From NCBI GenBank assembly GCA_964434115.1, contig CAYSSX010000002.1, positions 137,680 to 201,679 on the forward strand: a DNA stretch of 64,000 nucleotides, read 5' to 3'. Below, piece by piece: positions 7,348 to 22,335 of the stretch. Under the pieces are notes generated by a model. It was not told the DNA's origin and searched no databases. It worked only from the letters and a program-made list of their open reading frames with translations. The DNA comes from an uncultured bacterium. GTDB taxonomy: Bacteria > Omnitrophota > Omnitrophia > Omnitrophales > Aquincolibacteriaceae. Numbering within the stretch: position 1 is the first letter of the stretch; the number at the start of each line of letters is the position of its first letter. Made by a program: the position numbers and the translations under genes.

Positions 7348-7350
7348 TCC

Positions 7351-7950
7351 ATGAAGGGGTATTCCGAATGGATGCGGGAGCTCATCGAAGCTCTTATTAA
7401 ACTGCCGGGTATTGGCCGCCGCTCCGCAGAACGGATTGTCTTTTATCTCCTTCGGGCCAAACGCGAAGAAGTGATCCGTCTCTGCTCACTCCTGACAGCC
7501 GCGAAGGACAATGTTTTTTTCTGCGAAATTTGCCACAATTTTGCCAATGCCAAAATCTGTAATGTCTGCTCTGATCCCGGCCGCGACAAAGGTTTGATTT
7601 GTGTTGTGGAAGACCCCAAGGATGTTGTGGCCATAGAAAAAACGCAGACTTATGCAGGGGTTTATCACGTGCTTCTGGGCGCCCTCTCTGCTCTGGATGG
7701 AATTGGCCCCGCTGAAATTCAGATTCAGGATCTTCTGGAAAGAATCGAGAAGACGCCGGTGCGGGAAGTGATTCTTGCTACGAATCCCAACACGGAGGGC
7801 GAAACCACGGCCCTTTACCTTTCCCGGATGCTTAAGCCGTTGAAAGTAAAAGTGTCCCGGATTGCCCGAGGAGTTCCCGTGGGCAGCAATATTGAATTTG
7901 TTGATCAGGCCACCCTGTCCAGGGCCCTTGAAGGCCGCCTCCCCGCTTAA
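7351..7950 (+). CDS. recR: Recombination protein RecR
   Basis: LIEALIKLPGIGRRSAERIVFYLL helix-hairpin-helix, C4 zinc finger CEICHNFANAKICNVCSD, Toprim-like C-terminal region. Starts 3 nt after the dnaX stop. Confidence 0.92.
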   Translation: MKGYSEWMRELIEALIKLPGIGRRSAERIVFYLLRAKREEVIRLCSLLTAAKDNVFFCEICHNFANAKICNVCSDPGRDKGLICVVEDPKDVVAIEKTQTYAGVYHVLLGALSALDGIGPAEIQIQDLLERIEKTPVREVILATNPNTEGETTALYLSRMLKPLKVKVSRIARGVPVGSNIEFVDQATLSRALEGRLPA

Positions 7951-7998: not shown

Positions 7999-8017
7999 AA
8001 TGTTTCGCCCCTCTGAA

Positions 8018-8211: not shown

Positions 8212-8316
8212 ATGAAAGTTTCCAGGAACAGCTCTCGGTTTACATACTTCCTTAAAACTACCTCTGCGGTTGTGGCTGTTTTTTTTACCGTGAATACGGT
8301 TTTTGCGGCTGCGCCC
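8212..8316 (+). other. Predicted signal peptide of the giant protein
   Basis: Basic n-region (K, R, R), hydrophobic core AVVAVFFTVNTVF, AxA-like cleavage site VFA-AA. Confidence 0.55.
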
Positions 8317-11300
8317 ATTTCGATCAACGGCGGAGCTATGACTTCATCGGCCGTGAATTTGGGAGCTGATTCATTCTCTTGGTTTGAGGGCCTTCAGGTT
8401 CCTGAATCGTTTGGGCGGATCGAGTCCCGGTATTGGCCCAAAGAAACCGCGGTCAAAGGTCCCGCGGTCATTCATATTCAGGACGCACATGCCAATCCCG
8501 AAGCGCAGAGGCATATTGCCGAACTTCTTGGCGATCTTGAAGCGCGGGGGATTGTTTCAAGAATTTCTGTCGAAGGCGCTGCCGGCCCGCTTCATCCGGA
8601 AATCTTAAAGGTTTCTTCCCGTTCCGACATCAATCTTAAAATGGCGGATTATCTTTTGGAGCTCGGGGAACTTAGCGGCGCTGAACTTTTTGCTTTGAAA
8701 CACCCCCAGGCCCCGGAAATCCTTGGCGCGGAAAATACAGACCTCTACCGCCAAAGTTATCAGACTTTCGAAAAAGTGAAACGCGCAGAAGTTTTGATCC
8801 GGCCTGTCCTTGACACTTATGCCAAGGAACTCGAGCGCCTGCAAATCGCGCTTTTCCCCAAAGAACTGCATGAGTATGTGATCCGTTCCAATGAATGGCA
8901 CAGAAGCCAAGAGAGATCTTTCCGGTATTTTGACTTACTTGCCCGCTATGGCAGGGAGTATCTGGGGCTGGATTTTCACGACGCCCGGCTTCAGTTTGAG
9001 TGGCCGATGTTTGTGCGTTTGATGGCCTTGCAGGACATGGAGTCCAAAATCGATTCCGAGAAATCGAGAAGTGAATCTCAAGAAATAGTAAAAGCCTTGA
9101 ATGCCTCTGGAAATAAAATTTCAACGCAAGACCGTGAAGCCTTTGATTTTTTGTCTAAAAAAATAAAAGTTCTGTTTGATAACCCGTCTGAAACGGCCGC
9201 ATTTGTTCCCGACAGCCGCTATTCTGAGATCGAATCAATCCGCAGTCTCATGGAGTTTTTGAAAAGGAAAAGCCAAGCTGCGAGACTTGAGTTGTCTTTG
9301 TACCCGGACTTCGTGAAAAGAAGCGGCGTATTGATTCTGAGAGAAGAAATCGATGCCCGCATGCTTTTTTCGGAAATGGAAAAAGTTGAACGCCAGCTGG
9401 AAGAGAAAATGTCAGTTTCTGATGCTGAGAAAAGCCTTTTAAAAACGGCCCGCGACTTCCGGCTTCTTGAAAAATTGCTTTCACTCACGCTGACCCGGGA
9501 AGAATATGAAACCTTTTCTTCCAGAGTCCAGGATTTTCAACCCGCAGCATTTCGTGAGCGCTTTCGTTTGCTTGACCGCGAATTGAAGCAGGAAAAAGAC
9601 TACCCGCTTCTTTCCAGTGAAACCGTTACTGCGGCCGCTGAATTTTACAAACTCTCCCGCAGCCGCGATGAGATTTTATTGGATCAAGCTCTTTCCGGCG
9701 CTTCCGGCCAGGCTGTGGTGCTTGTCACGGGGGGCTTCCATAGCCAGGGAATGACAGATCTTCTAAAAGAGAGAAAGATTCCGCATGTGGTTATTGCCCC
9801 TAAAATAACAACCGCAGGCGAGGATGGCCTCTACGACAAAGTCATGATGGGGGGGCATTCTTCTTCGGAGGCTCCGGCAAATCCAGCATTGGGAACGCTC
9901 GCCAAGATGATTCTCTCTCAGCTTCCGTCGGTTTACGGCGTTCTTCAGCCGGGCACGCGCCCGGAAGAACAGGCGGCCCTTATTTTCAGAGGACTTCGTG
10001 ACGCTGCACTTCCCGCGCTTCGTGAGCAAGGCGTCCCGGAGCAAGTTATTTATGATGAGCTGTCACGCTGGGTTTCTCAGACCGGCGTTTTTTCGGGAAC
10101 AGATTTTCAAGTTTCATTCGATAGCGCTGCCAGCCGTGTGTCTTTGTCAGGTGCCGCAAGCGTTGAGACTGCACTACGCTCAGAACTTCGCATGGCCCCT
10201 GAGCCGGACACGCTTGCTTGGATTGCTGCAAATCTTCCCGAAGATGCAAATCGTCAGAAGGTTGTGGAAGCGATTACGGCCCTTAATGACCGTAAAGAGA
10301 AAGATTATGCTGAGGCAAACGGTGCCTATACGGGAATGTCTTTGTCTGATTTTCTCTTACAAAACACCGCAGAGTCAATTCCTGACCTTGACGGCCTTAT
10401 CCGTGATGTTTCGCGGATTGAAGGGTTGGTTCAGGAGGTCTATTCGAGTTTTGGAATTGGCGGGCTCTCCCTTGCTCACCGCGCCGCTTTTATTCTTGGT
10501 GCCTTTAGCCAGGCAGAATTTCCTGTGATCCACGAAGCTCTTCAAACCGCCTATGGCGCGATACGCTTTGACGAACACCGTTACTCGGAAGACCTGTCGG
10601 CTGAGGAATATGCCCGCCTCGCAAGAAAATTCTCAGAAGCCGTGAGCCGTGAAACTGTGCAGGAAAACCTCCTGATACGCGCAGCCCTTACCGAATATGT
10701 TTTCAATATTCCGGCACAAGCCAGACGCGCCCTTGAAAAAGAAAATCTTGTGAATGAACTGATCCGTGAGCTTCAGGAGCCGGGCAAAGGCCGGGTTCCC
10801 AACCTTACGTTTCTTACCGACTTACATGGAAGTACCAAGGTAGGTTCCTTTATTGCTTTCGCGCTGGGTATCGATGACTACGCTGGAATTACAAGCCCTC
10901 AAGAGCTTGAGCGCCGCCTAGTCGCAGACTGGCAGAAAAAAAATCCGGGTGCTCCTGAAAAATCCCTAAACGAGATTCTCGAAGAGAGAAATGTTCTCAT
11001 CGTGGGCGGCTCGGATTATGTGGATCGAGGGCCCAAACCCTATTGGGGTTTTCAATTTAATAAGTGGCTCCGCGAACACGGACTTTTGAAGTTTATCAAC
11101 GGTAACCACGACCTTTGGAAGGACTGGAATGTGGTTGGTATGCATCTTCGCGTGCATGACACGCTCCGAGATATAGCAGCTTCTGGAAAATTTAATGAAG
11201 CAGATCTTGCGGCGAATATTGAACGTATTCAGCGGTTTGTTACAACTGCGGGATGGGATCCGGAAAAAGACCGGACTAAATTTGAAGATACCGAAGCGCA

Positions 11301-14300
11301 AGTTCGGGAAATTATGAAGACGTTTATGCTTGGCATGCAGCAGGGAGCTGTGACGGACGCTCTTATTGAAACGGTTGCAGATGCCATTATCGATTCAGGC
11401 AACAATGCCAATCATTCCCTGGAGTGGTGGGCGCGTGAATGGGGGATTCACGGGGGCTGGTTTGATACCTTTTTGGATCAAATTAATGAGGAGTTAATCA
11501 ACGAGGCCATTAATGCTGCAAATATTGTGATTTCGCAGGAGGCGAATGCTCCGCGAGTCATGGCGATGTTTAAAGATGAAAGTCTTTTGCCCGAAGAGAT
11601 CCGTCCTTATGTGGCAGCGTGGAGGGAAAAGCTGAAAGCCGGGAAGCCGATGTTTGACCGCGTTGAAGCCTCTCTTTTCTCAAAAGGCGAGGATGTGAAA
11701 ACCCTCAAGGCGGAAATTGAACGCATCAAGAAAGCTAATGCCGAGATCCGGAGTGCTAATGAAAAGCTTGCCGCTGAAAAGCGTTTTGGTGAAATGTCGC
11801 CTCAGCATAAAGTGCCAAGCGCTTTTGAGTTGACGGCCAAGGCTGCCCAGGCCGAGATGAGCCGCATTAAGAAAGCCCTTGAAACCCTCAATGACCTTCT
11901 GCCGGGCCTGAATCTTCCTGTGCCCGAATCTGAAGTTGTGACTCAGCAAAATTACAGGACGAATCCCTCTGTGGCTGAAACCGCGCTTTGGGATTGGAAA
12001 AATTTCAGGCTTTTGTATACGGATGTTTACGACAATGTTTACGTCCACGGAATTATTCCGGTGGATGTCGAGAAGCTTGATTTTAATGTGACGTATACAA
12101 ACCCTCAGGGAGAGGTTTTTAGGGGTATCGCGGCGATTGAACGCATACAGTATGAAGTGCGCAGTTTCTTTGAAAAGTACGACGCCCTGCCGGATACTCC
12201 GGAGTTCCGGGCCGAGCTTGACGCGAAGCTGGGAGCAGCCTTTCAGGTTTTGAACGAGTGGTACTCAGATGTGCTTGGGTTTCTCAAGCCTGAAAGTATC
12301 CAGGGATTTTTAAAGTCCGGAGGAGCTAAAAGTTACCCCTTTGGACAAGGCTCTGACTTGAGTCCTCGTCAATTCAAAGGGGCTCTCGGGGCCATGCACG
12401 TGGGGCATGTGGAGTCTGCGAAGCTTAGAAAGCAAAAAATGTCTTATTGGATCGGAGGGATGGAGGGCGGTCTTCTCCACGGAGACTTTGAAATGTCCGA
12501 GGGCTACTCAGGCCTGGGCGCGATCATTCAATGGTTCAGACGTGATGCGGCCGGCAAGCTTCTGGGCTTCTCGCGCTTCGGATATAAGGAGTCCGTATCT
12601 TTTTACAACAACCAGATCAAGGAAAAGGAAAAGAAACTCAAAGAAGCCGCTGCCGTTACGGCAAAGGCCAGGACGGACCAAAAAGCGGAACTTGAAATCC
12701 AAGGCCTTGAAGCTGCTGAATTGAAGCTTAGGCAAGACATCGAAGCTTTAAAAGTACAGCGTGAGGCTCTAGTGAGCCGCGGCGAGCAGATGGAAGACAT
12801 CACTTTTCATGACGACCTTTTGCCTGCCGATGCAGAAAAAATTCGTCCTTACAAGGCCGGTGGTGATTTGGCCCGCTATTACATTGACCGTTTTCTCAGG
12901 GAAAACATTGAATCTTATAGAAGTCTGAAGGAAGAGGCTTCCAAGGTTGGGAACAAGGAACGTGCAGCTTTCTATGAAAGACGCGAGCAGGACGTTCGGG
13001 AACGCCTTAAAAGCTTCCGGAAACAAGAGTCTGAGCGGATGCTTGATGTTCTGTCGGGATGGAATTCCGGAGCGCTTCAGGCGCTGGCGGCTGCCAGGGC
13101 GGCCGTGGGACGACAGGATTACGCCGCGGCAGCTGCAGCGCTAATGCCGCTCACGCAATCGCAGGATGCCGGTGAAGATTTTACGGCGGCTTTGAAACAG
13201 ACCGCGCAAGCTCTTGAGCTGTTCTCCCGCGCGGAGCTGCGTGGAGAAGACTTTGTTCCTCAGTCGGAACTTGTGCTTTCTGATATGGCAGGAAGCCCGG
13301 CACAGGTTCTCGGCCTTTTTGCAGCCGCTCAAATTGCCAGCCCAAAACAAGCTCGTTCTGAACTGCGCTCCTTCGATGATGATGAAGAAGTGGTGCTTTC
13401 CGCTGAACTCCAGAATTTGTTCCGAGATGGGCTCGGCATGGATCCAGCCACCTTCAGCCGGGAAGAAAATAAAAACATCCTGAAAAGTTCTGAGGTCTTC
13501 GAATTTCTGATTAACAATCCCTTATTCACAGGAGCCCGAAAAGATCAGCTCCGAAGCATTTTTCAGGGGAACTTAACCTCTTGGGAAAATCTGGCAGCAG
13601 CTCTTTTGGCTGCCCGTTTGGCTCAGCCAGGATTACCCGATCCCGGAGTCGAATACCGGGCCGATGCTGTTTTTACCCTGAAGATGATGGAACGCTTAGG
13701 CTGGGAGCTTTCTAGTGCAGCAGCGCTTCGTAAGCCGATCGAGGAAAGAGCGCGCAATCTGGTAAAAGTCTACGGAGCATTTACAGTTTCTGATTCAGAT
13801 TTTCTTGCCACCGCCGCGAAGGCGCTTTACCGGGTTGTCGGGAATTCCTTCCATGCCACTGAACTCATTTTTGACACAACGGCATTGACTGAGCAGGAAA
13901 GACATACGGTTGAACAGGTCCAGCCTTTCCTTGAATATATTCAAAACAACAATGGATTTTTTGGTGACCGCCTCGGAGATCTTTGGCAGATTTTTCACAA
14001 TCATCTTACCTCGCCCTCGGACATGGCAAAAGCATTTATCGAAAGCGTTGAGGTCTCGTTCAAAGCTCCGGCAACATCCGAGACCCCTTTGATACCCGAT
14101 GATGCGGTTCACGGGCACGCCTTGAAATTGATAAAGTCTCTTTTGACGCTTATTCCCCAAGACCAGTCTGAGATCCGCCTGCAAGCCCTTGAGAAAGCTC
14201 GCGCGATTTTAAGTTCGGACCATACTTACCATGTTGTTTTGTCAGCGATTGAGGTTTTTGATGCCATTGGAACGCCGGCATTACAGGATCTCGTTCTGTA

Positions 14301-17300
14301 TTCCGCGCCATCTATTCCCGCAGATTACCGAAAAAACGCAATCTGGGCCTTGGCTCGTCATCGGGATGCTGCTGTTCCGTATCTGGCCAAGCTGATTATG
14401 GAAGAGCCTGAAGCTCGCTCAAGAAATGCGCTGGCAGAACTTCTGCAGAGAGTGTCCCGGGAGAGTGAATATGCTCCTGAGCCTGTGATGCGGCGTGATG
14501 TCTTTGATTTTTTTATCGGAGACCGGAAAATTGCAGAACAGCTTTTTGCGCTTATGGGCGGCCAGCTTCCCTTTTACAGGCAATTTATTAATTCATCCTG
14601 GCTGATTCCGTTTGATACCAAAGACCGGTTGAATGTCTTGCGCGCCCGTGTGGCGTTACTGCAGAAATTTAAGGGACATTTCACAGCGTCCGATTTTTCA
14701 ACCCTGCTTGAAACATGGGGGTTTGACAGCGTTTCCTACTGGGCAGAGCGAGTCGATTTCACAGCCCAGCGCGAGCACTTTCAATTTCTAATCAATCTTC
14801 CAAGACTTGATAAATCCATTTCTCCTGTTTCGGAAGCCATTCAAATATCCCGCCGCGACCACACGCCGGAACATACTCGATCCATACTGCTTCTTCTTCT
14901 CGAAGGGGGAGTCCTTTCTGGCGGCGGAATCGGTGCCCTCATTGATTTGATTCGTGAAAATCCGAGGGACTCCGTGGAAATTATGGCGTTTCTGATTGTG
15001 GCGCTCAAACTTCAAGATTTTGACTTTGGAGAAGACGGGGTTGTGCAAAGGAGAATTTCCCAGCTTCTTCATTCAAACATTGGCCCCGTTTATTTTATGG
15101 CGAGGAAGCTGGCTAAAAGTATTCCGCATGCCACCAATACTTCAGCTGGACTGGAGGCCGGCATTCGCGCCCCCATCGCAGAGCTGGATGATTCTTTGGG
15201 CCATGGAAATATGCTTTTTTATTTTCTGCGCATGGAGTTTCACCGAGCGCCTTCGACCGGCGATCTGGAAGTTATGCGGCAGACACTGCGCTTGATGCTT
15301 GACCTTCATCACCCAGTTCCCGAAAAACGCATTAAGTCTTCTGATGTCGACCGGGTTATTAGAGTCAGAATGCAGGATCTTGTTAGAAACGTGTTGCATA
15401 CCCGGGTTTTTCCTGCTTTTAAAGCGCCTTTGGTTGAACAGGCGGCATGGTTTATTGGAAGAGAGGTTATGAATATGGGCGGGACGGAAAACGATAGTCC
15501 GGACTATCTCTTGGAACATCCGCCAACATGGGCCAACTTTACCGATGAGGAAAAGCAGTCAGAGGGCTACCGAGCCGCACAGCTTCTTATTAGGACCTTC
15601 ATTGGCTTAAGAGACCGGTATGTTTTGAACCCAAGGGCTATTGAATTTATGAATACGGGCGGTGCAGCGAAACTGGCTTCTGAGGGTGATGTTTTGGGCG
15701 CGCTGAGAGCTCTTCAGGATTGGCGCCAAGGAATGAAACAATCACTGCTGACCCCGTCGGAAATGGAAGACCAATGGGAAATGTATATAAAACGCCACAT
15801 TACTGTGAACGACTTTGGCTATGTAAGCAACAGCAGTTACGGAAATTATAGCGAAGCCAAGTTTAATGAATTTGAACGAGATCGCGTGCTGGAGCGTTTT
15901 GCGGAGAATCTGCACGATGAGTTTTTGGCGCGGTTGTTTCCGCAGTACCAGGAATCCATTAGCCAGGCGGCGCAGGCTCAAACACCTGCCGAAACTAAAC
16001 CGGAAACCGTACTTCCTGAAAGTATCCGCGAACCTCTAAAAAATATTTTGCTTGCACTGCGTGCCTTGGTCAACCAAATGGCGATGGATGGGATCGCAAA
16101 CGAGCGTCTCGTGACGCTTATGCGAGTCCTTGAAACAGAGTCTTTGGATGTCCGGCAGGCGGCGAATATTATCGCGCTTATGCAGGATGAGTCGATCCGA
16201 ATGTATGACTTTTTTAACTTTCATTTTTCAGATTATCCCAAACAGCTTGCTCTGACGCTTGGCAAGGAAAGGGTTTTTGCCAGGTACCGCAAAGACAATG
16301 ACGATGAATTGACAGACAAGCAGTGGGCAAGCCGGGCCCAGGAAACGCTTCTTGCGGATATGAATGCTGAAGAAAAAACCATTTCAACCTTAAAGAGATA
16401 TTTAGAAAGTCTTCAGGTCGTTTTTGGGAGTCTGAAAGCTCAGGAACGTCAGCTTCTCAATCCGATTCCCTTGATCGTGGGTGATCTTCCTGTTTACAGT
16501 TCCAGCTTTGATCCTGAAACTGTTTCTCCTGTGAAGGTAGGGTCCAAAGCCTATGAGCTTCTTACGCTCAAAGCTTCGGGCTATCCTGTTCCTGCACTCA
16601 GTGTGCTGCCCAGCGAACTTCCCCGGACAACCAAGCTTGCCGTGGCTAACCCAATGTTTCGTTTCAGCGTTCTCCGCTCCCTTCTTGAACTTGAAAAAGA
16701 AAGCGGAAGGGTATTTCCCTTTCCTTCAGAAGGTCTAACGGACGCTGAAAAAGAGCAGGTCAGGGTTTTTCGCCAGGGTTATGCTTTCAACCCCGACGCC
16801 CCGCCGCTTTCGATTTCTATCCGGAGCGGATCTTTTTATTCCATGCCGGGAATGATGGACACTGTTCTCAACATGCCTTTTAACGAGGCTATTCGCGATG
16901 AGTTGATCCGTCGCGGTGAGCCTGAGGTTTTCGTCCTCGACAATTACCGGAGATTTTTAAGCGCGTACGCGATAAGCAGGTACGGCATTGATTCACGGTT
17001 TTTTTCAGAAGCAATTGACGAACTGAAACAAAAAGCCGCCCAGCGGCTCGGAAGATCTGCTTCAGCGATTACGATTGCCCAGTTTAATGTAGAGGAACTG
17101 AAAGAGGTCATTCAGAAATTTGAAGAGATCATCAGTTCAAGGGTTTCTGGTTTCGAACTGGAAGATCCTTTCACTCAGGTTTTGAAAGTCACCATGGATG
17201 TTTATAAGTCCTGGAACAGCAATGGGGCCACTCGTTACCGTCAGACCTTTGGTATCTCGGAACGTTTTGGCACGGCGGTCATTTATGAACAAATGGTTTA

Positions 17301-20300
17301 TGGAAACCGCGGCTCAAATTCAGGAACGGCTGTTGTGATTTCTAGTGATCCGGCTATGGGTAAGCATTACATGAGCGGCGCCTGGAAATTCGGAGGACAG
17401 GGAACTGAACTTGTCAGCGGTATGACAGGAGACTATATCGCGCTGACTCATCACGAAGGACAAGGACAAAGTCTGGAAGCGATCAACCCTGCTCTTTTTT
17501 CTGAGGTCCGGCAAGTTGTCGAAAAGCTGGATCGCGACCGAGGCCCTCAAGATATCGAAATCACCGCAGAAGATGGGAAAGTTTATTTGCTTCAGACAAG
17601 ACCCATGGTTCTCTCCGGAAAAGCCCCCAAGATGGTGCTTGAACCAGAGCAGTCTGCGCGTGATGCAGCCATTCCTGCTGTTCAAGGTGTTCCGGTTTCT
17701 CCAAATGCCGCGGTGGGGCGTATGGTGAATGCTCGAAACCTCAGCATTCCTAAACTCAAAGGGATTATCACAGAACTCCGCCGGAAAATGGACGAGGCGG
17801 GTGAAGAAGACCTTGGGATCATTCTTGTATCCGATTACGTTAACGATGATACCGCTGCCGCAATTCTCGATGTTAATAGTGAGCTCGGCCACAGAGGCAT
17901 TACGGGGATCATTAATTCAAAAGTCGGCGTCAGCAGCCATGCTGGTCTTATTGCCCGCCGTTTGGGTATTGCCTATGTCAGTGACGTAGAAGGGCTTGAA
18001 TTTAATGACGTATCAGGCGTAACCCGTTTGGCTGACCAGGACCTTAAATTCGGCATGGCCGGACTGGTGCTCAGCATTGATGGGTATTCCACACTCCAAA
18101 GTGAACACAGCGGAAAGGTTTTCCTTGGTGAAGTCACGCATCGTTTTGCAAAAGGATCGCCGACGCTTGGAGATCGGGACGAAGAAATCATAACTCAGGA
18201 AGAAAAGCCCGCATTTTCCTACGACCCTGAAGAAAAACCCGTTTTGACAAAAGAACCCGTTCGCCTTGCGGTGAATTTGGGGGCCTTTCGAGTCGACAAG
18301 CAAGGACAATCGACGGGCGTGCTGGAATCCAATTTTGATTTATCCAGGGCTAAGATTACAAACACGGTGCCTAATCGCGTGTTCGATGCCTTTTTGCGCA
18401 GCCTTGTCGGCAACCCTAATTTTTCCCTTACGGATATTTATGGTGTTGAGGACGCGGAGAAGTTCTTTGCGTTTCTCCGGGGGAATATCGCTCACGGTGT
18501 TTTTGATATCAATCAGATGGATGTGCATAAGGAAACGGACTTCTGGGTTTTGACTCTGAATGGACACAACATCAGGATCCATGAAGCTCCTGCGGCACCT
18601 GGGATTTTGAATCAGAAGGTCGAGTATTTGATTGATTTTAGCGACCCCGACTTGACGCGTGAAACGAACGAGCAGCGTGAACAGCGCCTCAAAGCACTGC
18701 AGGGCGGTAACTTGAAAAGGGTTTTTGCCTTTTCCGGTGACGAGGATCCAGCGGCCAGAGTTCTCACGCCCGGGATCAATACCCAAGAATTTACGGATGC
18801 TCAGAATCTGTTTCTTCCCCTGGCTTCTCCTTTGACCCTTGCAGCAGCGCAGGTTCTTTCTGTTATTGAGAAGGCCTTTCCCGGAGAGTTTGATGTTTTC
18901 TCCAGTGTTTTGGCTACCCGCCCCTTAAGCGGAGAAGCCGGAAATATTGCTTTTATACGAGACAAACAGTTTGGGAGTGCTTTGAAAGGTTTGTTTCCGC
19001 AAATAGCGCCCGAAGTCCCGGGAAGTCCCGCAACCATGTTTGAATTTGATATTCCAAAAGGTGCCGGGAATGTCAGGCTTTTCCTCGTGCCTAAGCCCGG
19101 ATCAAAGTTTGAACAGGTTAAGAGCTTGGGTAAGGATGAGAAAGCCGCCATGATCAAGGTCCTTCAAAAGGAAATTAACAAGGCCGTTGAGACCGCAGCA
19201 AAAGGCAGCCTTGCACCCTTTCTCCGCTATGCCGGAGAAGAACATCTCAGCTCGCTGACGGCTCTTCGGGATACGCATGCCGTAGTTTTTGACAGCCAGG
19301 CGACGGCCGTTGTGGAAGGCGGCAAGGTGGAACTCTATTTTCACATGAATGACATCGGGTATGCAGCTGCGCTCAGCAAAACACTTGAGTCCTTTCTGGC
19401 TGTCGATGCAGAGCCGATAGAGGCATTGGCGAAACCTCTGTTTGCAAAACAGGCAGCGCAGGGGATTTGGAGGACCGGAACGATTGCGCCCAATCAGATT
19501 ATTCAAACGCCCCGTTTTGTTGCTGCTGGTGATGAAATCGGGTTTGGAATTATCGGAGTCCGCGGACGCATCGGTAAACAGGTCCATCAGCTTCTGGCGT
19601 CAAATCCAAATTATGTTCCGGAATTTTGGATCGGCGTTCAGGATATTGATACGTTGATTCAGCAGTTTAAAGAAGACGTTGGACAGGGGCCCGCCGATGT
19701 TGTCCGGGATGATGAAGTTTATGAACTCGAAAAAGGTAAGGATGAAAACAAAGACCACGTTCTTCTTAAAAACAAAAAAACCGGAGCTTATTTGCTGAAT
19801 CCCAAAACGAATAAACCTTTGGCGATTCCGTATTACAACATCACCATGAAAGCCCAGGGAGATCCTGAGGCCTTTGAACGGCATCTTCGGGAAACTCTGG
19901 GGGATGCCATTGACCGCATAGAAACCCTTTTTAATGCGGCTGGGTTCGGACTTGATCGCAATGATCCGTATTATGACGCCTTTTTGGGAGGCGCTAAGTT
20001 GAAGCGTATTGTTTTGACCGCTCCCGCGAAAGGAGAAGTGGATGTGACGGTTGTTCGAGGCGTGAATGAAAGTGCTTTAGCCAAAGCTGTTGAAAACACA
20101 GAGGGGCAAGTTCTTTTTTGTTCCGCAGCTTCGTGTACCACCAATGGGCTGGGACGTGCTCTTATTGAATTTGTTGGGATTCTTGAAAATGCAGGATTCC
20201 CCGCAGACAGCGTTCGCTTTATCACCCATCACGCCATGACGCCAAGTCAGGGCGCTCTTTTTGGGGCTGCGTCGGCAGGAAAATCTCAGCGCACGGCCAA

Positions 20301-22335
20301 TGACCCTAACATGTCGGCCATGCTGGAAGCGACTGGCGCGAACAAAGTTGTTGTTGAGGTCTGGAATTCTTTCAAGGGAAAATTGAGCGGCGTGTCTCAC
20401 CGTGACGGTAACTATGCAGGATCTGTGCTTGTGGTGACGGCCTTTATTAAGGCCGGAGAAAACAAATACCCTACGGCCGAAGAGATCAATAGGGCTTTTG
20501 AAGATATTGCCGCCAGGGAAGATCTCAAGGGGATTTTGTCCTACAAGCCTGGTGTGATTTCAACAGGCCAAATCGCAGGAGACAGGACAACGTCGATGTT
20601 TTTGCCCGAGTTTACGAAAGTTGAGATCGGAAAAAACGGAGCGGCAGTGACCATGGTTGTCGGCTATGACAACGAAGCCGGATATACCAACGCGGTCATT
20701 CAGTTTGATCAGCTTCTCGCAATGGCGGCTCGCGGAGTGACTCCGCCTGCGGGGCTGGGAGCAGTGGATGCCGCGAATAAAGCCTTGGAAAATAAAATTT
20801 ATATGCAGCGGTATGAAGCACTTCTTCACAGGGTTCGAGGTTATCTGAACCTTAAAGCTCTCAATCTTGAGCAAAATCAGAGGGCGGCTTTTCTGGAATC
20901 CCTGCAGCAGCTTTTGGCCGTCCTTCAGCAAAACACAACGTCTGCTGGAGGGAATCGCGTGTTGGAAGCGGCTCGGGATGCTTTCAGCCAAGTTGAAAGA
21001 ATTGGAACTGCCGAAAATACGGAAATCCGGCAAGTTGAAAATGATCTTGAGAATACCATTTTTGAAATTGAAGACGCGCTCAACGGAACCCAGCCGCGCA
21101 GCGAACTCCGCAGCATTGAACTCGCAATCGAGGCTCTTGGTAATCTCGGACTCAGCATTTCTGATCAGGACCGGATCCGGTTTACCTCTGTGGAAGACGC
21201 TGCACGATACGCGGATCAGCAAATACGGGTTAACTTTGCTTCTCTTGATCTGGCTGGATTGAAATCGCGTGCCGATAAGCTGATACGCGAAGGACACACC
21301 CCTTACCAGGGACGCGAGGCGATTGAACGGGCGGTTCGCGAACTCAATGAGATCCGCGGGATTGATGCGCCCGCATTCCTCAATCACTTGGCAAATTTGG
21401 TGTCAGACCGGATTCGCGAAATCGGTTCAGCGCGCTCCGAACTCCGTGACCTTTCTCCTGCAGCGCCTGCCTTTGAAGACTGGAAAGCCAGTTACCAGAC
21501 AGCCTTACCGTTTTTAGGTGCTGATTACGAAAGCCGCCGCTGGGTCGCTGTCCACATGGCTGACGGCCTTTTTGCGGTTGTGCCCGCGGCGCTTGAACCC
21601 ATTATTCGGGATGCGGCGATGCAGTTTCTCAAACAGGATTTATTTTACTTTGATGGAAACTTTGAAAGACCGACAGATGCCTTGGGGGTCCCGGCTTCCA
21701 CCCAGCCTTCGGCCAACCAGCCTGGGCTTGAGATTTCAGTCACCCGGAAAATCGAAGACGCTGAAACGCATTTTCTTGCTGTGGCCACACTGCTGGCCCG
21801 GAAAGATCAAGCCTATGTTCATGAACTGCTTTTGGATGGCGACCCCGAAGAAGCGGCTCGTCTCAACCAGGCTTTTCGGGAGGAGTATGGTTACACAGGT
21901 TTTGCCGGCCGGTATCAGGTGACGGCGGTTTCTTCCAAGGATCTTGGGAAGAAAATTCAAGGGCTTGTCAGCGGGGTCTATAACAATGTCCGCTCTGCAT
22001 CGGACGCGGCCAACCTTCAGGATTTTATTGCCCGGCATGTCGCTTTCTCAAGCCCAGACCGCGAACTTCTTGTTAAGGGACTTGTCAACACAGGGTGGCT
22101 TATTCACGACGACTTGGGAAATCACCCAGGCATTATCGCGGCCCGTATGGACCGCTCGGTTTCTCTTGCTGCGGGACAGCTTGAGCCTGAGTTAATCCGC
22201 AAGCTCGGAGAAATTGCGGCTCTCCGGAAAGTTATTTCAGCGTCCGGGGAACTTTTTGCGGGGATGAACCTGCAGCTGATCCAGGACCTTTGGGACAATG
22301 CTGTGAAGCAGCGCTGGTTTTACAAGTCAGCATAA
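8212..22335 (+). CDS. Giant secreted multidomain protein (4707 aa) with a mosaic of metallophosphoesterase-, PPDK/PEP-synthase- and GAPDH-like modules plus coiled-coil and HEAT-like regions
   Basis: Single uninterrupted 14,124-nt ORF with RBS AAGGAA upstream. N-terminal signal peptide MKVSRNSSRFTYFLKTTSAVVAVFFTVNTVFA|AAP. Internal modules are listed as separate features below. Confidence 0.8.
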   Translation: MKVSRNSSRFTYFLKTTSAVVAVFFTVNTVFAAAPISINGGAMTSSAVNLGADSFSWFEGLQVPESFGRIESRYWPKETAVKGPAVIHIQDAHANPEAQRHIAELLGDLEARGIVSRISVEGAAGPLHPEILKVSSRSDINLKMADYLLELGELSGAELFALKHPQAPEILGAENTDLYRQSYQTFEKVKRAEVLIRPVLDTYAKELERLQIALFPKELHEYVIRSNEWHRSQERSFRYFDLLARYGREYLGLDFHDARLQFEWPMFVRLMALQDMESKIDSEKSRSESQEIVKALNASGNKISTQDREAFDFLSKKIKVLFDNPSETAAFVPDSRYSEIESIRSLMEFLKRKSQAARLELSLYPDFVKRSGVLILREEIDARMLFSEMEKVERQLEEKMSVSDAEKSLLKTARDFRLLEKLLSLTLTREEYETFSSRVQDFQPAAFRERFRLLDRELKQEKDYPLLSSETVTAAAEFYKLSRSRDEILLDQALSGASGQAVVLVTGGFHSQGMTDLLKERKIPHVVIAPKITTAGEDGLYDKVMMGGHSSSEAPANPALGTLAKMILSQLPSVYGVLQPGTRPEEQAALIFRGLRDAALPALREQGVPEQVIYDELSRWVSQTGVFSGTDFQVSFDSAASRVSLSGAASVETALRSELRMAPEPDTLAWIAANLPEDANRQKVVEAITALNDRKEKDYAEANGAYTGMSLSDFLLQNTAESIPDLDGLIRDVSRIEGLVQEVYSSFGIGGLSLAHRAAFILGAFSQAEFPVIHEALQTAYGAIRFDEHRYSEDLSAEEYARLARKFSEAVSRETVQENLLIRAALTEYVFNIPAQARRALEKENLVNELIRELQEPGKGRVPNLTFLTDLHGSTKVGSFIAFALGIDDYAGITSPQELERRLVADWQKKNPGAPEKSLNEILEERNVLIVGGSDYVDRGPKPYWGFQFNKWLREHGLLKFINGNHDLWKDWNVVGMHLRVHDTLRDIAASGKFNEADLAANIERIQRFVTTAGWDPEKDRTKFEDTEAQVREIMKTFMLGMQQGAVTDALIETVADAIIDSGNNANHSLEWWAREWGIHGGWFDTFLDQINEELINEAINAANIVISQEANAPRVMAMFKDESLLPEEIRPYVAAWREKLKAGKPMFDRVEASLFSKGEDVKTLKAEIERIKKANAEIRSANEKLAAEKRFGEMSPQHKVPSAFELTAKAAQAEMSRIKKALETLNDLLPGLNLPVPESEVVTQQNYRTNPSVAETALWDWKNFRLLYTDVYDNVYVHGIIPVDVEKLDFNVTYTNPQGEVFRGIAAIERIQYEVRSFFEKYDALPDTPEFRAELDAKLGAAFQVLNEWYSDVLGFLKPESIQGFLKSGGAKSYPFGQGSDLSPRQFKGALGAMHVGHVESAKLRKQKMSYWIGGMEGGLLHGDFEMSEGYSGLGAIIQWFRRDAAGKLLGFSRFGYKESVSFYNNQIKEKEKKLKEAAAVTAKARTDQKAELEIQGLEAAELKLRQDIEALKVQREALVSRGEQMEDITFHDDLLPADAEKIRPYKAGGDLARYYIDRFLRENIESYRSLKEEASKVGNKERAAFYERREQDVRERLKSFRKQESERMLDVLSGWNSGALQALAAARAAVGRQDYAAAAAALMPLTQSQDAGEDFTAALKQTAQALELFSRAELRGEDFVPQSELVLSDMAGSPAQVLGLFAAAQIASPKQARSELRSFDDDEEVVLSAELQNLFRDGLGMDPATFSREENKNILKSSEVFEFLINNPLFTGARKDQLRSIFQGNLTSWENLAAALLAARLAQPGLPDPGVEYRADAVFTLKMMERLGWELSSAAALRKPIEERARNLVKVYGAFTVSDSDFLATAAKALYRVVGNSFHATELIFDTTALTEQERHTVEQVQPFLEYIQNNNGFFGDRLGDLWQIFHNHLTSPSDMAKAFIESVEVSFKAPATSETPLIPDDAVHGHALKLIKSLLTLIPQDQSEIRLQALEKARAILSSDHTYHVVLSAIEVFDAIGTPALQDLVLYSAPSIPADYRKNAIWALARHRDAAVPYLAKLIMEEPEARSRNALAELLQRVSRESEYAPEPVMRRDVFDFFIGDRKIAEQLFALMGGQLPFYRQFINSSWLIPFDTKDRLNVLRARVALLQKFKGHFTASDFSTLLETWGFDSVSYWAERVDFTAQREHFQFLINLPRLDKSISPVSEAIQISRRDHTPEHTRSILLLLLEGGVLSGGGIGALIDLIRENPRDSVEIMAFLIVALKLQDFDFGEDGVVQRRISQLLHSNIGPVYFMARKLAKSIPHATNTSAGLEAGIRAPIAELDDSLGHGNMLFYFLRMEFHRAPSTGDLEVMRQTLRLMLDLHHPVPEKRIKSSDVDRVIRVRMQDLVRNVLHTRVFPAFKAPLVEQAAWFIGREVMNMGGTENDSPDYLLEHPPTWANFTDEEKQSEGYRAAQLLIRTFIGLRDRYVLNPRAIEFMNTGGAAKLASEGDVLGALRALQDWRQGMKQSLLTPSEMEDQWEMYIKRHITVNDFGYVSNSSYGNYSEAKFNEFERDRVLERFAENLHDEFLARLFPQYQESISQAAQAQTPAETKPETVLPESIREPLKNILLALRALVNQMAMDGIANERLVTLMRVLETESLDVRQAANIIALMQDESIRMYDFFNFHFSDYPKQLALTLGKERVFARYRKDNDDELTDKQWASRAQETLLADMNAEEKTISTLKRYLESLQVVFGSLKAQERQLLNPIPLIVGDLPVYSSSFDPETVSPVKVGSKAYELLTLKASGYPVPALSVLPSELPRTTKLAVANPMFRFSVLRSLLELEKESGRVFPFPSEGLTDAEKEQVRVFRQGYAFNPDAPPLSISIRSGSFYSMPGMMDTVLNMPFNEAIRDELIRRGEPEVFVLDNYRRFLSAYAISRYGIDSRFFSEAIDELKQKAAQRLGRSASAITIAQFNVEELKEVIQKFEEIISSRVSGFELEDPFTQVLKVTMDVYKSWNSNGATRYRQTFGISERFGTAVIYEQMVYGNRGSNSGTAVVISSDPAMGKHYMSGAWKFGGQGTELVSGMTGDYIALTHHEGQGQSLEAINPALFSEVRQVVEKLDRDRGPQDIEITAEDGKVYLLQTRPMVLSGKAPKMVLEPEQSARDAAIPAVQGVPVSPNAAVGRMVNARNLSIPKLKGIITELRRKMDEAGEEDLGIILVSDYVNDDTAAAILDVNSELGHRGITGIINSKVGVSSHAGLIARRLGIAYVSDVEGLEFNDVSGVTRLADQDLKFGMAGLVLSIDGYSTLQSEHSGKVFLGEVTHRFAKGSPTLGDRDEEIITQEEKPAFSYDPEEKPVLTKEPVRLAVNLGAFRVDKQGQSTGVLESNFDLSRAKITNTVPNRVFDAFLRSLVGNPNFSLTDIYGVEDAEKFFAFLRGNIAHGVFDINQMDVHKETDFWVLTLNGHNIRIHEAPAAPGILNQKVEYLIDFSDPDLTRETNEQREQRLKALQGGNLKRVFAFSGDEDPAARVLTPGINTQEFTDAQNLFLPLASPLTLAAAQVLSVIEKAFPGEFDVFSSVLATRPLSGEAGNIAFIRDKQFGSALKGLFPQIAPEVPGSPATMFEFDIPKGAGNVRLFLVPKPGSKFEQVKSLGKDEKAAMIKVLQKEINKAVETAAKGSLAPFLRYAGEEHLSSLTALRDTHAVVFDSQATAVVEGGKVELYFHMNDIGYAAALSKTLESFLAVDAEPIEALAKPLFAKQAAQGIWRTGTIAPNQIIQTPRFVAAGDEIGFGIIGVRGRIGKQVHQLLASNPNYVPEFWIGVQDIDTLIQQFKEDVGQGPADVVRDDEVYELEKGKDENKDHVLLKNKKTGAYLLNPKTNKPLAIPYYNITMKAQGDPEAFERHLRETLGDAIDRIETLFNAAGFGLDRNDPYYDAFLGGAKLKRIVLTAPAKGEVDVTVVRGVNESALAKAVENTEGQVLFCSAASCTTNGLGRALIEFVGILENAGFPADSVRFITHHAMTPSQGALFGAASAGKSQRTANDPNMSAMLEATGANKVVVEVWNSFKGKLSGVSHRDGNYAGSVLVVTAFIKAGENKYPTAEEINRAFEDIAAREDLKGILSYKPGVISTGQIAGDRTTSMFLPEFTKVEIGKNGAAVTMVVGYDNEAGYTNAVIQFDQLLAMAARGVTPPAGLGAVDAANKALENKIYMQRYEALLHRVRGYLNLKALNLEQNQRAAFLESLQQLLAVLQQNTTSAGGNRVLEAARDAFSQVERIGTAENTEIRQVENDLENTIFEIEDALNGTQPRSELRSIELAIEALGNLGLSISDQDRIRFTSVEDAARYADQQIRVNFASLDLAGLKSRADKLIREGHTPYQGREAIERAVRELNEIRGIDAPAFLNHLANLVSDRIREIGSARSELRDLSPAAPAFEDWKASYQTALPFLGADYESRRWVAVHMADGLFAVVPAALEPIIRDAAMQFLKQDLFYFDGNFERPTDALGVPASTQPSANQPGLEISVTRKIEDAETHFLAVATLLARKDQAYVHELLLDGDPEEAARLNQAFREEYGYTGFAGRYQVTAVSSKDLGKKIQGLVSGVYNNVRSASDAANLQDFIARHVAFSSPDRELLVKGLVNTGWLIHDDLGNHPGIIAARMDRSVSLAAGQLEPELIRKLGEIAALRKVISASGELFAGMNLQLIQDLWDNAVKQRWFYKSA
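10790..11500 (+). other. Calcineurin-like metallophosphoesterase module within the giant protein
   Basis: Ordered motifs D870-L-H-G (FLTDLHG, nt 10819-10830), GGSDYVDRG (GD-x-x-D-R) and G964-N-H-D (INGNHD, nt 11101-11112). These match the metallophosphatase signature DxH..GDxxDRG..GNH[DE]. Confidence 0.6.
16530..17630 (+). other. Pyruvate phosphate dikinase / PEP synthase-like nucleotide-binding (ATP-grasp) module within the giant protein
   Basis: VGSKAYELLTLKASGYPVPALSVLPSE (compare GGKGANLAEM..GLPVPPGF), SMPGMMDTVLNMPFNE (PPDK hallmark SMPGMMDTVLNLGLN), MVYGNRGSNSGTAVVISSDP...GE.LVSG and LLQTRPM. Confidence 0.65.
17690..18140 (+). other. PEP-utilizing-enzyme mobile (phosphohistidine swivel) domain-like module within the giant protein
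   Basis: GITGIINSKVGVSSH(3243)AGLIARRLGIAYVSDVEG resembles the GGxTSHAAIxARExGIPxVVG phosphohistidine motif. The candidate His codon is at 17938-17940. No PEP/pyruvate-binding TIM-barrel domain follows. Confidence 0.55.
19520..20720 (+). other. Glyceraldehyde-3-phosphate dehydrogenase-like module within the giant protein
   Basis: Gly-rich NAD-binding start FGIIGVRGRIGKQV. Active-site motif SAASC(3975)TTNG (ASCTTNC, Cys codon 20134-20136). FITHHAMTPSQGALFGAAS (compare TVHAxTxxQxxxDGPS). VVGYDNEAGYTN (compare WYDNEWGYS). Has a ~40-aa insertion in the N-terminal lobe. Confidence 0.7.

Follow-up and report, generated by a model that had tools for sequence, protein, structure and literature searches.

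A 4,707-residue Omnitrophota protein with a conserved head, exchangeable enzyme modules and a conserved tail: a putative exported polyprotein

Omnitrophota are widespread, ultra-small and probably predatory or parasitic bacteria. The stretch of DNA analysed here (64,000 nucleotides, referred to as the window) carries a single gene in which several enzyme modules are strung into one chain of 4,707 residues, and the locus raises the question of where such a product works, and whether it does so as one chain or in pieces. The very long genes of the phylum are a recognised puzzle, and for their proteins the choice between a single chain and a cut product has been left open (bioRxiv 10.1101/2023.11.21.568195; bioRxiv 10.64898/2026.06.07.730766). 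The evidence collected below leans towards a product that is exported and whose modules act separately; it is also compatible with each of the roles proposed in an earlier note on this DNA, namely a surface scaffold, a contact-dependent effector and an extracellular phosphoryl relay. The preferred reading, to which a probability of about one half is assigned, is that of a Sec-targeted modular polyprotein of Omnitrophota which would be exported, enzymatically active and possibly cut at a short junction motif. The gene is small enough to handle, and it offers a testable grammar of head, five-residue motif, tail and purge of cysteine.

Reading frame and chromosomal locus

All features of the gene, its product and its upstream neighbours are collated in Table 1. 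As claimed in the earlier note, the gene is one very long reading frame with a ribosome-binding site (AGGA, about 9 nt 5' of the ATG), and dnaX-recR lies next to it. The orthologs in four independent Omnitrophota MAGs (L001, L002, L007 and L011) are likewise single stop-free frames, each of more than 3,900 residues, these lengths being lower bounds since the frames continue past the end of the flank. The modules of the window protein are 35-55% identical to those of the orthologs, and composition is uniform along the frame. The pair dnaX-recR is found directly upstream in six MAGs as well (L001, L002, L005, L006, L009 and L011). Compared with L001, dnaX is 70% and recR 86% identical, identities from which the host phylum may be taken to be Omnitrophota; the loci closest to the gene are nearly all in Omnitrophota MAGs. 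The neighbours of the frame comprise an RND efflux operon and housekeeping genes. No translocation machinery, T1SS genes included, was identified among the neighbouring genes, and no promoter, terminator or Rfam element stood out around the frame. Self-BLAST of the chain gave no internal protein repeats, and no record identical to the protein came up in an exact-sequence look-up.

That the frame might be an artefact (an assembly chimera, or several genes joined by sequencing errors), a concern which the earlier note had raised itself, can safely be dismissed in view of the uninterrupted frames in four independent assemblies, the flanking synteny kept between MAGs and the conservation module by module at uniform composition, with nothing in its favour other than the ortholog in L009, the apparent split of which shows that such artefacts do occur in MAGs. 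A natural division of the L009 gene into two frames was rejected, the break being a run of N in the scaffold.

Table 1. Features of the long gene, its protein and its upstream neighbours (positions refer to the window).
Feature	Residues	Position (nt)	Strand	Remarks
dnaX-recR		5554..7950	+	conserved upstream neighbours, outside the protein; gene context
Single open reading frame	4,707 + stop	8212..22335	+	ATG start, no internal stop
Putative Sec-type signal peptide or N-terminal anchor	1-33	8212..8310	+	MKVSRNSSR...; hydrophobic core, VFA|AA
Head module	~60-560	8389..9891	+	predicted Tiki/TraB/ChaN/erythromycin-esterase-fold core with helical insertion (~320 aa)
Junction motif 1, RSELR	656-660	10177..10191	+	directly after head region
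PPP-type metallophosphoesterase	~860-1410	10789..12441	+	TDLHG 869-873, GSDYVDRG 933-940, GNHD 964-967, VGH ~1398
Charged helical (coiled-coil-like) spacer	~1460-1672	12589..13227	+	sequence inspection; weak WzzB-like match, E~0.6
Junction motif 2, RAELR	1673-1677	13228..13242	+	motif scan
Junction motif 3, RSELR	1715-1719	13354..13368	+	left breakpoint of cargo swap relative to P0026
Helical block	1720-2760	13369..16491	+	HEAT-like repeats ~2003-2086; ortholog profile A3
PPDK-like ATP-grasp and phospho-His swivel	~2770-3310	16519..18141	+	SMPGMMDT 2877-2884, D-I-E/Q-T-R ~3110-3130, His3243
Degenerate GAPDH-like module	~3327-3745	18190..19446	+	ASPLT replaces ASCTT; catalytic His lost; best PDB E=7.7e-7
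GAPDH-like module, intact active site	~3780-4172	19549..20727	+	S-C3975-T-T-N; His in ITHHAMT 4004-4010
Junction motif 4, RSELR	4296-4300	21097..21111	+	right breakpoint of cargo swap relative to P0026
Junction motif 5, RSELR	4408-4412	21433..21447	+	immediately before tail
Tail module, Rossmann-like alpha/beta domain	4413-4707	21448..22332	+	ends ...RWFYKSA; always exact C-terminus in relatives

Head, tail and enzyme modules

The head gave a confident AF2 model, in which the alpha/beta fold of the Tiki/TraB/ChaN/Ere superfamily is predicted. This superfamily is defined by paired G-x-x-H motifs and a conserved Glu, and it includes non-proteases (ChaN, Ere). The invariant head residues are D91, H93, E121 and G507-G-F-H510. 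In common with the superfamily (Tiki/TraB/PrgY/ChaN/erythromycin-esterase/RRSP/HopBA1), the head has an N-terminal His motif, a conserved Glu (E121) that follows the second strand, and a C-terminal G-x-x-H (GGFH). The His motif, however, is I-Q-D-x-H (H93) in place of G-x-x-H, and the head differs further by its long helical insertion and in that every example examined has it fixed at the N-terminal end of a long multidomain protein. None of the family models of the superfamily reached its threshold with the head; PF04187 was matched by two of 11 heads, below threshold (E=0.0019). The head family comprises 10,047 protein clusters and has no curated model, and the head was N-terminal in all of the best 150 matches listed. 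The gene belongs to a very large family without a curated model, which is defined by this N-terminal hydrolase-fold head.

At the other end, a conserved Rossmann-like tail closes the proteins of the gene's own clade. No Pfam or PDB sequence match was obtained for the tail, and a word-index search with the tail profile was empty. Assignment as an HAD enzyme was considered and set aside (weak match to the HAD-phosphatase fold, no canonical DxD motif seen).

Between these two ends, alignments and profile searches indicate that three of the four enzyme modules have kept their catalytic residues. In the metallophosphoesterase, motifs I-III (D-x-H, G-D-x-x-D-R and G-N-H-[DE] of PF00149) are intact; the region scored 18.6 bits with Pfam Metallophos (gathering score 21.5) and had no PDB sequence match. 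Motifs III and IV are separated by a large insertion, and the VGH that follows it may be the last metal-binding motif. The motifs are kept in L001 and L002, and the module is 82% identical in P0026.

The HEAT-like assignment within the helical block rests on the match of an ortholog profile to alphaRep HEAT proteins (E=9e-6). The distal half of the block (from residue ~2244) is part of the dikinase unit: the block accompanies the PPDK module in L001, L011, P0048 and P0108, and P0154 aligns to residues 2244-3308 (helical domain through swivel). A word-index search with the block found a single distant protein.

In the dikinase itself, TIGR01828 (E=2.6e-57) covers residues 2854-3310 with profile positions 74-507 of 865 (194 bits, cut-off 843). 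Pfam PPDK_N scored 52.7 bits (cut-off 27), and the PEP-utilizers mobile domain 19.9 bits, below its cut-off of 23.1, with the catalytic G-x-S-S-H present. The ATP-grasp residues (Arg, SMPGMMDT and D-x-E/Q-x-R) are conserved in the alignment to 1kbl/1jde; in the swivel, GVSSH3243AG, which is kept in L001, aligns with GGMTSH455AA of PPDK. The combination of ATP-grasp and phospho-His swivel with catalytic residues kept is that of PPDK, PEP synthase, rifampin phosphotransferase and glucan-water dikinase, and the module aligns to residues 76-487 of C. symbiosum PPDK. Unlike PPDK, it has no PEP/pyruvate-binding TIM barrel (no match to PF02896 in the protein; the catalytic Cys of the barrel is absent too), and a conserved helical domain of ~500 residues, shared with P0154, precedes the ATP-grasp.

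The degenerate GAPDH copy is 42-47% identical in P0048 and P0127. The distal copy matched TIGR01534 (E=5.5e-32; 111 bits, cut-off 367) and exceeded the gathering score of Pfam Gp_dh_C, and its SC3975TTN and ITHHAMT were aligned to Cys149 and His176 of 1cer. Pfam Gp_dh_N gave no match in the GAPDH; the NAD N-domain aligns weakly and carries an insertion of ~60 residues. With type I GAPDH the distal module shares the Cys of S-C-T-T-N, the His, and the Arg and Thr residues of the phosphate sites; it differs in being embedded in a 4.7-kaa chain in tandem with an inactive copy. Some pathogens expose a "moonlighting" GAPDH on their surface, and the window GAPDH would probably lie outside the cytoplasm as well.

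Other modules of cytoplasmic type, for phosphotransfer and sugar phosphates, make up the cargo of relatives: receiver domains, HPr, PEP-utilizers_C, hexokinase, PGI, FBPase, iPGM, HAD and CsrA. Module order in L001 differs from that of the window protein, and a fixed assembly line for phosphotransfer from swivel to GAPDH is accordingly less likely.

The profile and motif matches uphold the enzyme families named in the earlier note (metallophosphoesterase, PPDK ATP-grasp with swivel, and GAPDH) against the prospect, also raised there, of low-complexity or repeat matches only. Its HEAT/ARM-like stretches were supported as HEAT-like, and the lack of obvious Ig/cadherin repeats agrees with the absence of any such Pfam match in the protein. 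Its description of the modules as remnants does not suit the three with intact catalytic residues. It had overlooked the degenerate second GAPDH copy, the head, the tail, the junction motif and the exclusion of cysteine.

Junction motif, cysteine exclusion and fate of the product

The pentapeptide R-[SA]-E-[LVM]-R recurs at module junctions. It was observed five times in the window protein (0.08 expected) and 358 times in 153 relatives (~8 expected); in 12 kaa of neighbouring proteins it was found 0 times. Among relatives, the median position of the first motif is residue 706. The codons differ at all five sites of the window gene, so selection acts on the peptide, and a DNA-level repeat or recombination signal was rejected for the same reason. 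Searching the literature for the motif string turned up nothing but names of unrelated software.

Relatives exchange cargo at these motifs. Relative to P0026, the window motifs at residues 1715 and 4296 mark the two limits of the cargo swap, the ends of homology blocks in the rearranged L001 fall at motifs, and 30% of the cargo HSP starts (n=1,011) lie within 15 residues of a motif, compared with 6% for random positions. P0002 and P0011 have arrays of receiver domains in which the motif occurs about every 147 residues, a spacing consistent with one motif per receiver domain. In the gene's subfamily the chain behind the head consists of autonomous cassettes in a row, with the pentapeptide before each. 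The motif is absent between PPDK and pseudo-GAPDH, and between pseudo-GAPDH and GAPDH, in the window protein, so some modules would stay fused. In the model of the tail, the only one that contains a motif, the pentapeptide falls where confidence is low and the chain is probably disordered.

A positively charged n-region, a hydrophobic core (residues 13-38) and an AXA-like VFA|AA site make up the N-terminus, which, as judged by eye and from hydropathy, agrees with the Sec-type signal peptide of the earlier note. Residues 13-38 are the only segment of the whole protein hydrophobic enough for a TM helix or a signal, and a hydrophobic N-terminal segment is present in 147 of the 153 relatives. Cysteine is nearly absent: two residues were counted in 4,707 (~33 expected, P=4e-12), both of which (C3970 and C3975, the latter catalytic) lie in the active-site stretch of GAPDH, and the same confinement is seen in L001, L007 and L011. 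The motif-bearing subfamily contains 0.07% Cys compared with 1.14% in other Omnitrophota ORFs; Cys is depleted ~15- to 30-fold relative to other ORFs of the same genomes. By a rough count, about a third of the residual Cys in relatives belongs either to the signal-peptide region or to catalytic motifs, those of GAPDH, PEP-utilizers_C and UDPGDH-type modules. The free-standing homolog P0154, which is of cytoplasmic type and has no signal, contains 10 Cys in 1,400 residues. Catalytic positions apart, the entire chain has been cleared of cysteine, a pattern that argues both for export and for enzyme activity.

In the preferred reading, the chain would be exported through its N-terminal Sec signal and would work outside the producer's cytoplasm with catalytically active modules, and the junction motif would be a recognition and processing site freeing the modules as separate products. 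The head would be the obvious candidate protease; a sister subfamily has the same head and lacks the RSE[LVM]R motif, so the head need not read it. Action would most likely take place on or in the prey or host cells to which Omnitrophota attach, and such cells would offer ATP, NAD+ and sugar phosphates to the modules. A cytoplasm is the normal setting for HPr, receiver domains, CsrA and enzymes that depend on ATP or NAD, which counts against this reading: such cargo fits the periplasm or the surface poorly unless it gets into a target cell. At position 2 the motif has Ala in 18% of the sites, a tolerance that also speaks against the reading and makes phosphorylation of the Ser unlikely.

A more specific proposal is advanced tentatively, as one that may well prove wrong: RSE[LVM]R would be the processing site of the long proteins of Omnitrophota, and a Sec-exported effector polyprotein would be cut there, either by the Tiki-fold head of the same chain or by an Arg-directed protease dedicated to the task. 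The freed phosphatases, dikinase, GAPDH, HPr, receiver domains, CsrA and other products would rewire the phosphometabolism of prey or host to the advantage of the ultra-small predator, in a MARTX-like but unrelated manner, with cassette exchange diversifying the cargo. Should the motif prove to be a processing site, functional units could be read off long proteins by computation, and the biochemistry of single modules would come within reach. Should the cargo act on prey, it would form a new class of metabolic effectors; if neither holds, the locus is a clear case of domain-cassette evolution at a conserved chromosomal position.

Among the alternatives, an unprocessed scaffold is unlikely, yet it accounts for several of the observations. 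One chain, tethered N-terminally to the envelope or periplasm, would act with its enzymes and HEAT repeats jointly on extracellular or lysate phosphometabolites, RSELR being a structural linker or a partner docking site without cleavage. The single hydrophobic segment at the N-terminus, HEAT repeats (typical of scaffolds), the motif-free run from PPDK to GAPDH and the exclusion of Cys, which suits any extracytoplasmic location, agree with this, and extracellular pre-processing of sugars by such domains has been proposed (West-Roberts et al., bioRxiv 10.1101/2023.11.21.568195). A bare linker, however, would have no need of three charged residues kept invariant by selection on the peptide, and the changed module order of L001 argues against an assembly line with a set order. 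For CsrA, HPr and receiver domains no substrate outside the cell is obvious, and little ATP or NAD+ is to be had there.

A cytoplasmic product is improbable. [quoted passage not shown] Every cargo type is a classic cytoplasmic protein whose active site is intact, and the locus is core-chromosomal, syntenic and vertically inherited; moreover, stand-alone genes of upper glycolysis often go undetected in Omnitrophota, and a cytoplasmic face has been suggested for long proteins with TM helices only (Nielsen & Lui, bioRxiv 10.64898/2026.06.07.730766). The positive charges before the hydrophobic segment and the AXA-like site after it are, however, the topology of an exported protein, and Cys depletion of this extent is unexpected for cytoplasmic enzymes, as the 10 Cys of P0154 illustrate. 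Stand-alone GAPDH is found in 176 of 176 complete Omnitrophota genomes (bioRxiv 10.64898/2026.06.07.730766), so the window copy is an extra one.

A non-catalytic adhesin or decoy, in which enzyme folds would be kept for binding ligands, prey surfaces or cytosolic partners, is very improbable: the conservation of a GAPDH copy that has lost its catalytic residues, module scores far below the curated cut-offs of their families, a dikinase without acceptor domain and the parallel of moonlighting surface GAPDH are outweighed by the conserved ATP-grasp, phospho-His and metal-binding motifs and by the retention of Cys solely in the GAPDH active site, which recurs in orthologs and in other enzyme types of the family.

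Comparison with known long proteins and with MARTX

The earlier note knew of no described family with such an architecture, which was overstated, since multi-enzyme proteins of Omnitrophota already appear in two preprints. The giant "Archaeovorins" have HEAT repeats, PPDK and domains resembling glycolytic enzymes and are predicted to be extracellular (West-Roberts et al. 2023, bioRxiv 10.1101/2023.11.21.568195), and a "multi-enzyme metabolic cluster" class of very long proteins has been defined (Nielsen & Lui 2026, bioRxiv 10.64898/2026.06.07.730766). The window protein shares with these its phylum, HEAT, PPDK_N, glycolytic and sugar-phosphate modules and receiver domains, a signal peptide and a bulk predicted to be extracytoplasmic. 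In length (4.7 kaa) it falls below the Omnitrophota giants of more than 10-30 kaa, that is, below both the 2026 catalogue (at least 10 kaa) and the 2023 Archaeovorins (above ~30 kaa, many TM helices); unlike the giants, it has no internal TM helices and, by Pfam, no C39/S8 peptidase, glycosyltransferase or dockerin domains. The cleavage points of giant proteins were stated to be unknown (bioRxiv 10.1101/2023.11.21.568195), and the text of the 2026 preprint contains neither "cleav" nor "linker" nor "polyprotein" (bioRxiv 10.64898/2026.06.07.730766). Neither preprint mentions the head module, the RSE[LVM]R motif, the tail or the exclusion of Cys. No description was found of the extreme exclusion of Cys, nor of the build plan of a conserved head, a short motif between swappable modules and a conserved tail; this plan is a pointer to where such long proteins might be cut.

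The window protein may be likened to the MARTX toxins by analogy of logic only, there being no homology, and with cleavage proposed for the window protein. MARTX proteins of Vibrio and relatives are long exported chains in which variable autonomous effectors stand between conserved terminal regions; the effector repertoire is shuffled between strains, and the modules are freed at short junction sites. In contrast to MARTX, the window protein has neither RTX/glycine-rich repeats nor a cysteine protease domain (Pfam/NCBIfam), its only Cys residues, those of GAPDH, leave none for a protease of the MARTX type, and no T1SS genes lie near its gene. It carries an N-terminal Sec signal where MARTX has a C-terminal T1SS signal, and its cargo consists of enzymes of central metabolism and phosphotransfer, whereas that of MARTX consists of toxins directed at the cytoskeleton and GTPases.

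Locus and neighbourhood of the giant gene

The giant gene is conserved and syntenic, and its product (the giant protein, 4,707 aa) is laid out as an N-terminal module (head), enzyme cassettes and a C-terminal module (tail), with exchangeable, motif-delimited modules, intact catalytic motifs and a purge of cysteine. The single frame opens with ATG, is stop-free and uniform in GC content, and AGGA lies ~9 nt 5' of its start. At the N-terminus (MKVSRNSSRFTYFLKTTSAVVAVFFTVNTVFA/AAP) a positive n-region precedes the hydrophobic core and an AXA-like site follows it; no other stretch of the protein is hydrophobic enough to form a membrane helix or signal. The frame is not an assembly artefact, because its orthologs in four MAGs from unrelated studies (loci L001, L002, L007 and L011) are also single frames of >3,900 aa, which run off the stored flank. 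A gene split into two at another locus (L009) was rejected, as the scaffold carries a run of N there. dnaX-recR is found directly upstream in the window and likewise in six MAGs. The very long ORF, RBS, Sec-type N-terminus and dnaX-recR neighbourhood described in the earlier note were all recovered, and the artefact it had allowed for is countered by the uninterrupted orthologous frames.

The leader that separates recR from the giant ORF gave no Rfam match, and consensus scans of it yielded no convincing sigma-70 promoter or terminator. No translocation machinery was found near the giant gene, the neighbours being an RND efflux operon, whose outer-membrane factor indicates a diderm envelope, and then tuf-nusG-rplKA...rpoBC. 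The features are collated in the table.

Features of the window around the giant gene (window positions)
Feature	Position	Strand	Remarks
Exported-type ORF	2067-5291	-	1,074 aa; clear signal peptide MKKSFKKSLVWVVTVTLSL...AYA/QQ
Leader, recR to giant ORF	7951-8211		261 nt
Giant ORF	8212-22335	+	4,707 codons
Receiver-domain ORF	22290-23171	+	293 aa; ~255 aa from likely start, ATG near 22404
Hydrolase pair	23227-26816	both	alpha/beta-hydrolase, S9/S15-like, 368 aa; ceramidase/AAT-like, 823 aa, on minus
Glucoamylase PF10091, secreted-type, with CBM9	27364-29364	+	5 kb downstream of giant gene
HTH-cupin regulator			after glucoamylase
RND efflux operon, OEP-HlyD-AcrB x2	30119-39606		after HTH-cupin regulator

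The protein encoded directly 3' of the giant gene carries a receiver domain at its C-terminus (PF00072, E=4.5e-13; 31-34% identity with the cargo receiver domains of the relatives P0002 and P0011) and has a normal cysteine content (1.7%). The exported-type ORF, another cysteine-poor exported product, has no Pfam match and two cysteines (0.19%); it lacks the junction motif (the pentapeptide R-[SA]-E-[LIVM]-R) and does not resemble the head family. In Candidatus Omnitrophus fodinae (L018:712-4204) an equivalent of the hydrolase pair just 3' of the giant gene (40-46% identity) adjoins another member of the head family; such pairs may be recurrently linked with head-family genes.

Head, enzyme modules and tail

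A query with the first 1,200 aa returned ten relatives sharing only aa ~60-550; their other domains vary (five receiver domains, PEP-utilizers_C, iPGM, amylase with PP2C, Metallophos). At E<=1e-3, an exhaustive profile search with an 11-sequence head alignment (A1) recovered 10,047 representative clusters, 7,050 of them at E<=1e-30. In all 150 of the best hits listed among these 10,047 the head sits at the very N-terminus, and the proteins range from 519 to 7,832 aa. Species-representative genomes contained 339 confirmed head stretches, nearly all in Omnitrophota MAGs and often several per genome. Pfam and NCBIfam have no model for the head. In its AF2 model (pLDDT 77, pTM 0.73) a helical insertion of ~320 aa interrupts a small alpha/beta core, and D91, H93, E121 and G507-G-F-H510 are invariant in A1. 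From the model and these residues the head is a probable hydrolase and a putative member of the Tiki/TraB/ChaN/erythromycin-esterase superfamily.

Head-bearing genes form tandem pairs on one strand within a few kb at three Omnitrophota loci (L020, L021, L033), and several genomes hold multiple unlinked copies (e.g., O. fodinae, L018 and L029; nzgw332, L011 and L046); the family is therefore strongly paralogous. A sister subfamily ("HIQDAHCNYEAQ" head; relatives P0009-P0153; 75-84 of the 153 representatives) shares the head and lacks the junction motif; its cargo includes phosphoglucomutase signatures (TASHNP, GDSDR, RPSGT) and HExxH motifs.

The enzyme modules reported in the earlier note are real and, judged by their motifs, mostly look active. 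Its PPDK ATP-grasp and swivel domains correspond to aa 2854-3310, which match NCBIfam TIGR01828 (profile positions 74-507 of 865, E=2.6e-57) and score above the gathering threshold of Pfam PPDK_N. The module aligns over residues 76-487 of C. symbiosum PPDK, with retention of the Arg/SMPGMMDT loop, of the ATP-grasp residues D-x-E and Q-x-R, and of the catalytic His (GVSSH3243AG vs GGMTSH455AA). The PEP/pyruvate TIM barrel is missing, so the module is a dikinase half and not a PPDK. The GAPDH-like domain proved to be a tandem of two modules: S-C-T-T-N and the His are retained in the distal copy (aa ~3780-4172, E=7e-20 to 1cer), whereas the proximal copy (aa ~3327-3745, E=8e-7) reads ASPLT instead and has lost the His. 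The calcineurin-type metallophosphoesterase scores under the Pfam cut-off, but TDLHG, GSDYVDRG and GNHD are intact and conserved in orthologs. The HEAT-like helical stretches were likewise supported, an ortholog profile of aa 1720-2780 matching designed HEAT-like repeat proteins (E=9e-6). From aa ~2244 this helical block, together with the ATP-grasp and swivel domains, aligns with a free-standing protein of 1,400 aa (P0154, E=2e-61) that has no signal peptide and 10 cysteines; by this alignment the dikinase unit is an autonomous enzyme family taken up as cargo.

The tail (last ~295 aa) is 28-62% identical in ten relatives, in which it always forms the exact C-terminus, ending in ...R-x-F-Y-[KRQ]-S-A. 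No DxD motif was seen in it, and no Pfam or PDB sequence match was obtained.

Junction motif, cassette exchange and cysteine content

The junction motif, first spotted as R-S-E-L-R during alignment of C-terminal regions, marks module boundaries. It occurs in the giant protein at aa 656, 1673, 1715, 4296 and 4408 (5 observed vs 0.08 expected; maximum 2 in 2,000 shuffles) and in the 153 relatives 358 times (~8 expected), but not once in 12 kaa of protein from neighbouring genes of the window; its density in head-bearing ORFs is six times that in the remaining ORFs across 80 Omnitrophota loci. The codons differ among the five sites, so that selection acts at the peptide level. RSELR, RSEVR and RSEMR are the commonest pentamers of motif-bearing relatives, and the flanks carry small residues before the motif and small or acidic residues after it. 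In relatives the first motif follows the head (median position aa 706), the median segment between motifs is 315 aa, and the tail begins exactly at a motif in 10/10 tail-bearing representatives. Cargo HSPs between relatives (1,011 in all) begin <=15 aa from a motif in 30% of cases, vs 6% for random positions. A motif recurs every ~147 aa along the receiver-domain arrays of P0002 and P0011, consistent with one per receiver domain. In the tail model, the only one to include the motif, it falls in a low-confidence stretch.

The closest relative (P0026, 5,234 aa) matches the giant protein over aa 28-1722 (65% identity; phosphoesterase module 82%) and aa 4292-4707 (60%), but its cargo differs (HAD, PGI, another GAPDH) in the stretch bounded by the motifs at aa 1715 and 4296. 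The L001 ortholog is rearranged (head, phosphoesterase, GAPDH pair, helical block with PPDK, C-terminal region), with block ends that coincide with junction motifs. Twelve further relatives carry receiver domains (6/12), PEP-utilizers_C (4), HPr (2) and FBPase (2), as well as hexokinase, starch synthase, transaldolase, FHA, CsrA, WD40 and methyltransferase domains; the cargo theme is phosphotransfer, sugar-phosphate metabolism and regulators, all normally cytoplasmic. Receiver domains are the commonest cargo of the head family.

Only two of the 4,707 residues are cysteines (C3970 and C3975, both within the GAPDH active-site stretch), vs ~33 expected from neighbouring genes (P=4e-12). Orthologs have 0-3 per ~4,000 aa and keep the pair wherever the GAPDH module exists. 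Cysteine amounts to 0.07% over 260 kaa of the motif-bearing subfamily (none in 15/64 proteins), 0.42% in the sister subfamily and 1.14% in the other ORFs of those loci. By a rough count, about one third of the residual cysteines of relatives lie in known catalytic motifs or the signal region, the retained motifs being GAPDH SCTTNC, PEP-utilizers_C CFCGE and UDP-glucose-dehydrogenase-type GGSCFPKD. Two more cysteine-containing motifs recur despite the purge, VFDFT[KR]CG (P0020, P0031, P0035, P0043, P0049) and SIACTSCNET (P0019, P0071), and are probably catalytic sites of further cargo modules. Cysteine exclusion is typical for exported proteins of bacteria that do not form disulfides; we read the pattern as evidence for both an extracytoplasmic chain and selection on catalysis.

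Proposed mechanism and relation to known proteins

Sec would export the giant chain, since 147/153 relatives have a signal-like N-terminus, the topology is positive-inside and cysteine is excluded. The modules would act as active enzymes, and the junction motif would be recognised and processed, the head being the candidate protease. Since ATP, NAD+, the partners of HPr and mRNAs for CsrA occur only in cytoplasm, the chain may act in prey or host cells or in their lysate. Processing and the prey site are the weakest steps, as the sister subfamily has the head without the motif, some modules are unseparated and no translocation machinery lies nearby. Among the rival readings, an unprocessed surface scaffold would retain export and dispense with cleavage, leaving the motif as a structural linker or docking site; a cytoplasmic, anchored polyprotein would suit the cargo but has the cysteine exclusion against it. 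A non-catalytic adhesin is at odds with the intact catalytic motifs.

West-Roberts et al. 2023 (bioRxiv 10.1101/2023.11.21.568195) described giant proteins of Omnitrophota in which HEAT repeats occur alongside PPDK domains and glycolytic-enzyme-like domains, with a predicted extracellular location; these authors suspected C39 or S8 peptidase domains of cleavage and stated the cleavage points to be unknown. Nielsen & Lui 2026 (bioRxiv 10.64898/2026.06.07.730766) catalogued proteins from 10 kaa upward and defined a multi-enzyme metabolic class, in a text silent on cleavage, on linkers and on any shared head; Seymour et al. 2023 noted the poor annotation of giant ORFs. In view of the two preprints the giant gene is a smaller relative of already described giant, multi-enzyme proteins, and the earlier note, right in its domain reading, overstated the novelty of the architecture. 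The head family, junction motif, tail, motif-bounded cassette exchange and cysteine purge appear to be undescribed in the searchable literature. With this gene, the open question of whether and where such long proteins are cut becomes directly testable. Although it has none of the defining parts of MARTX toxins, the giant protein resembles them in its logic.
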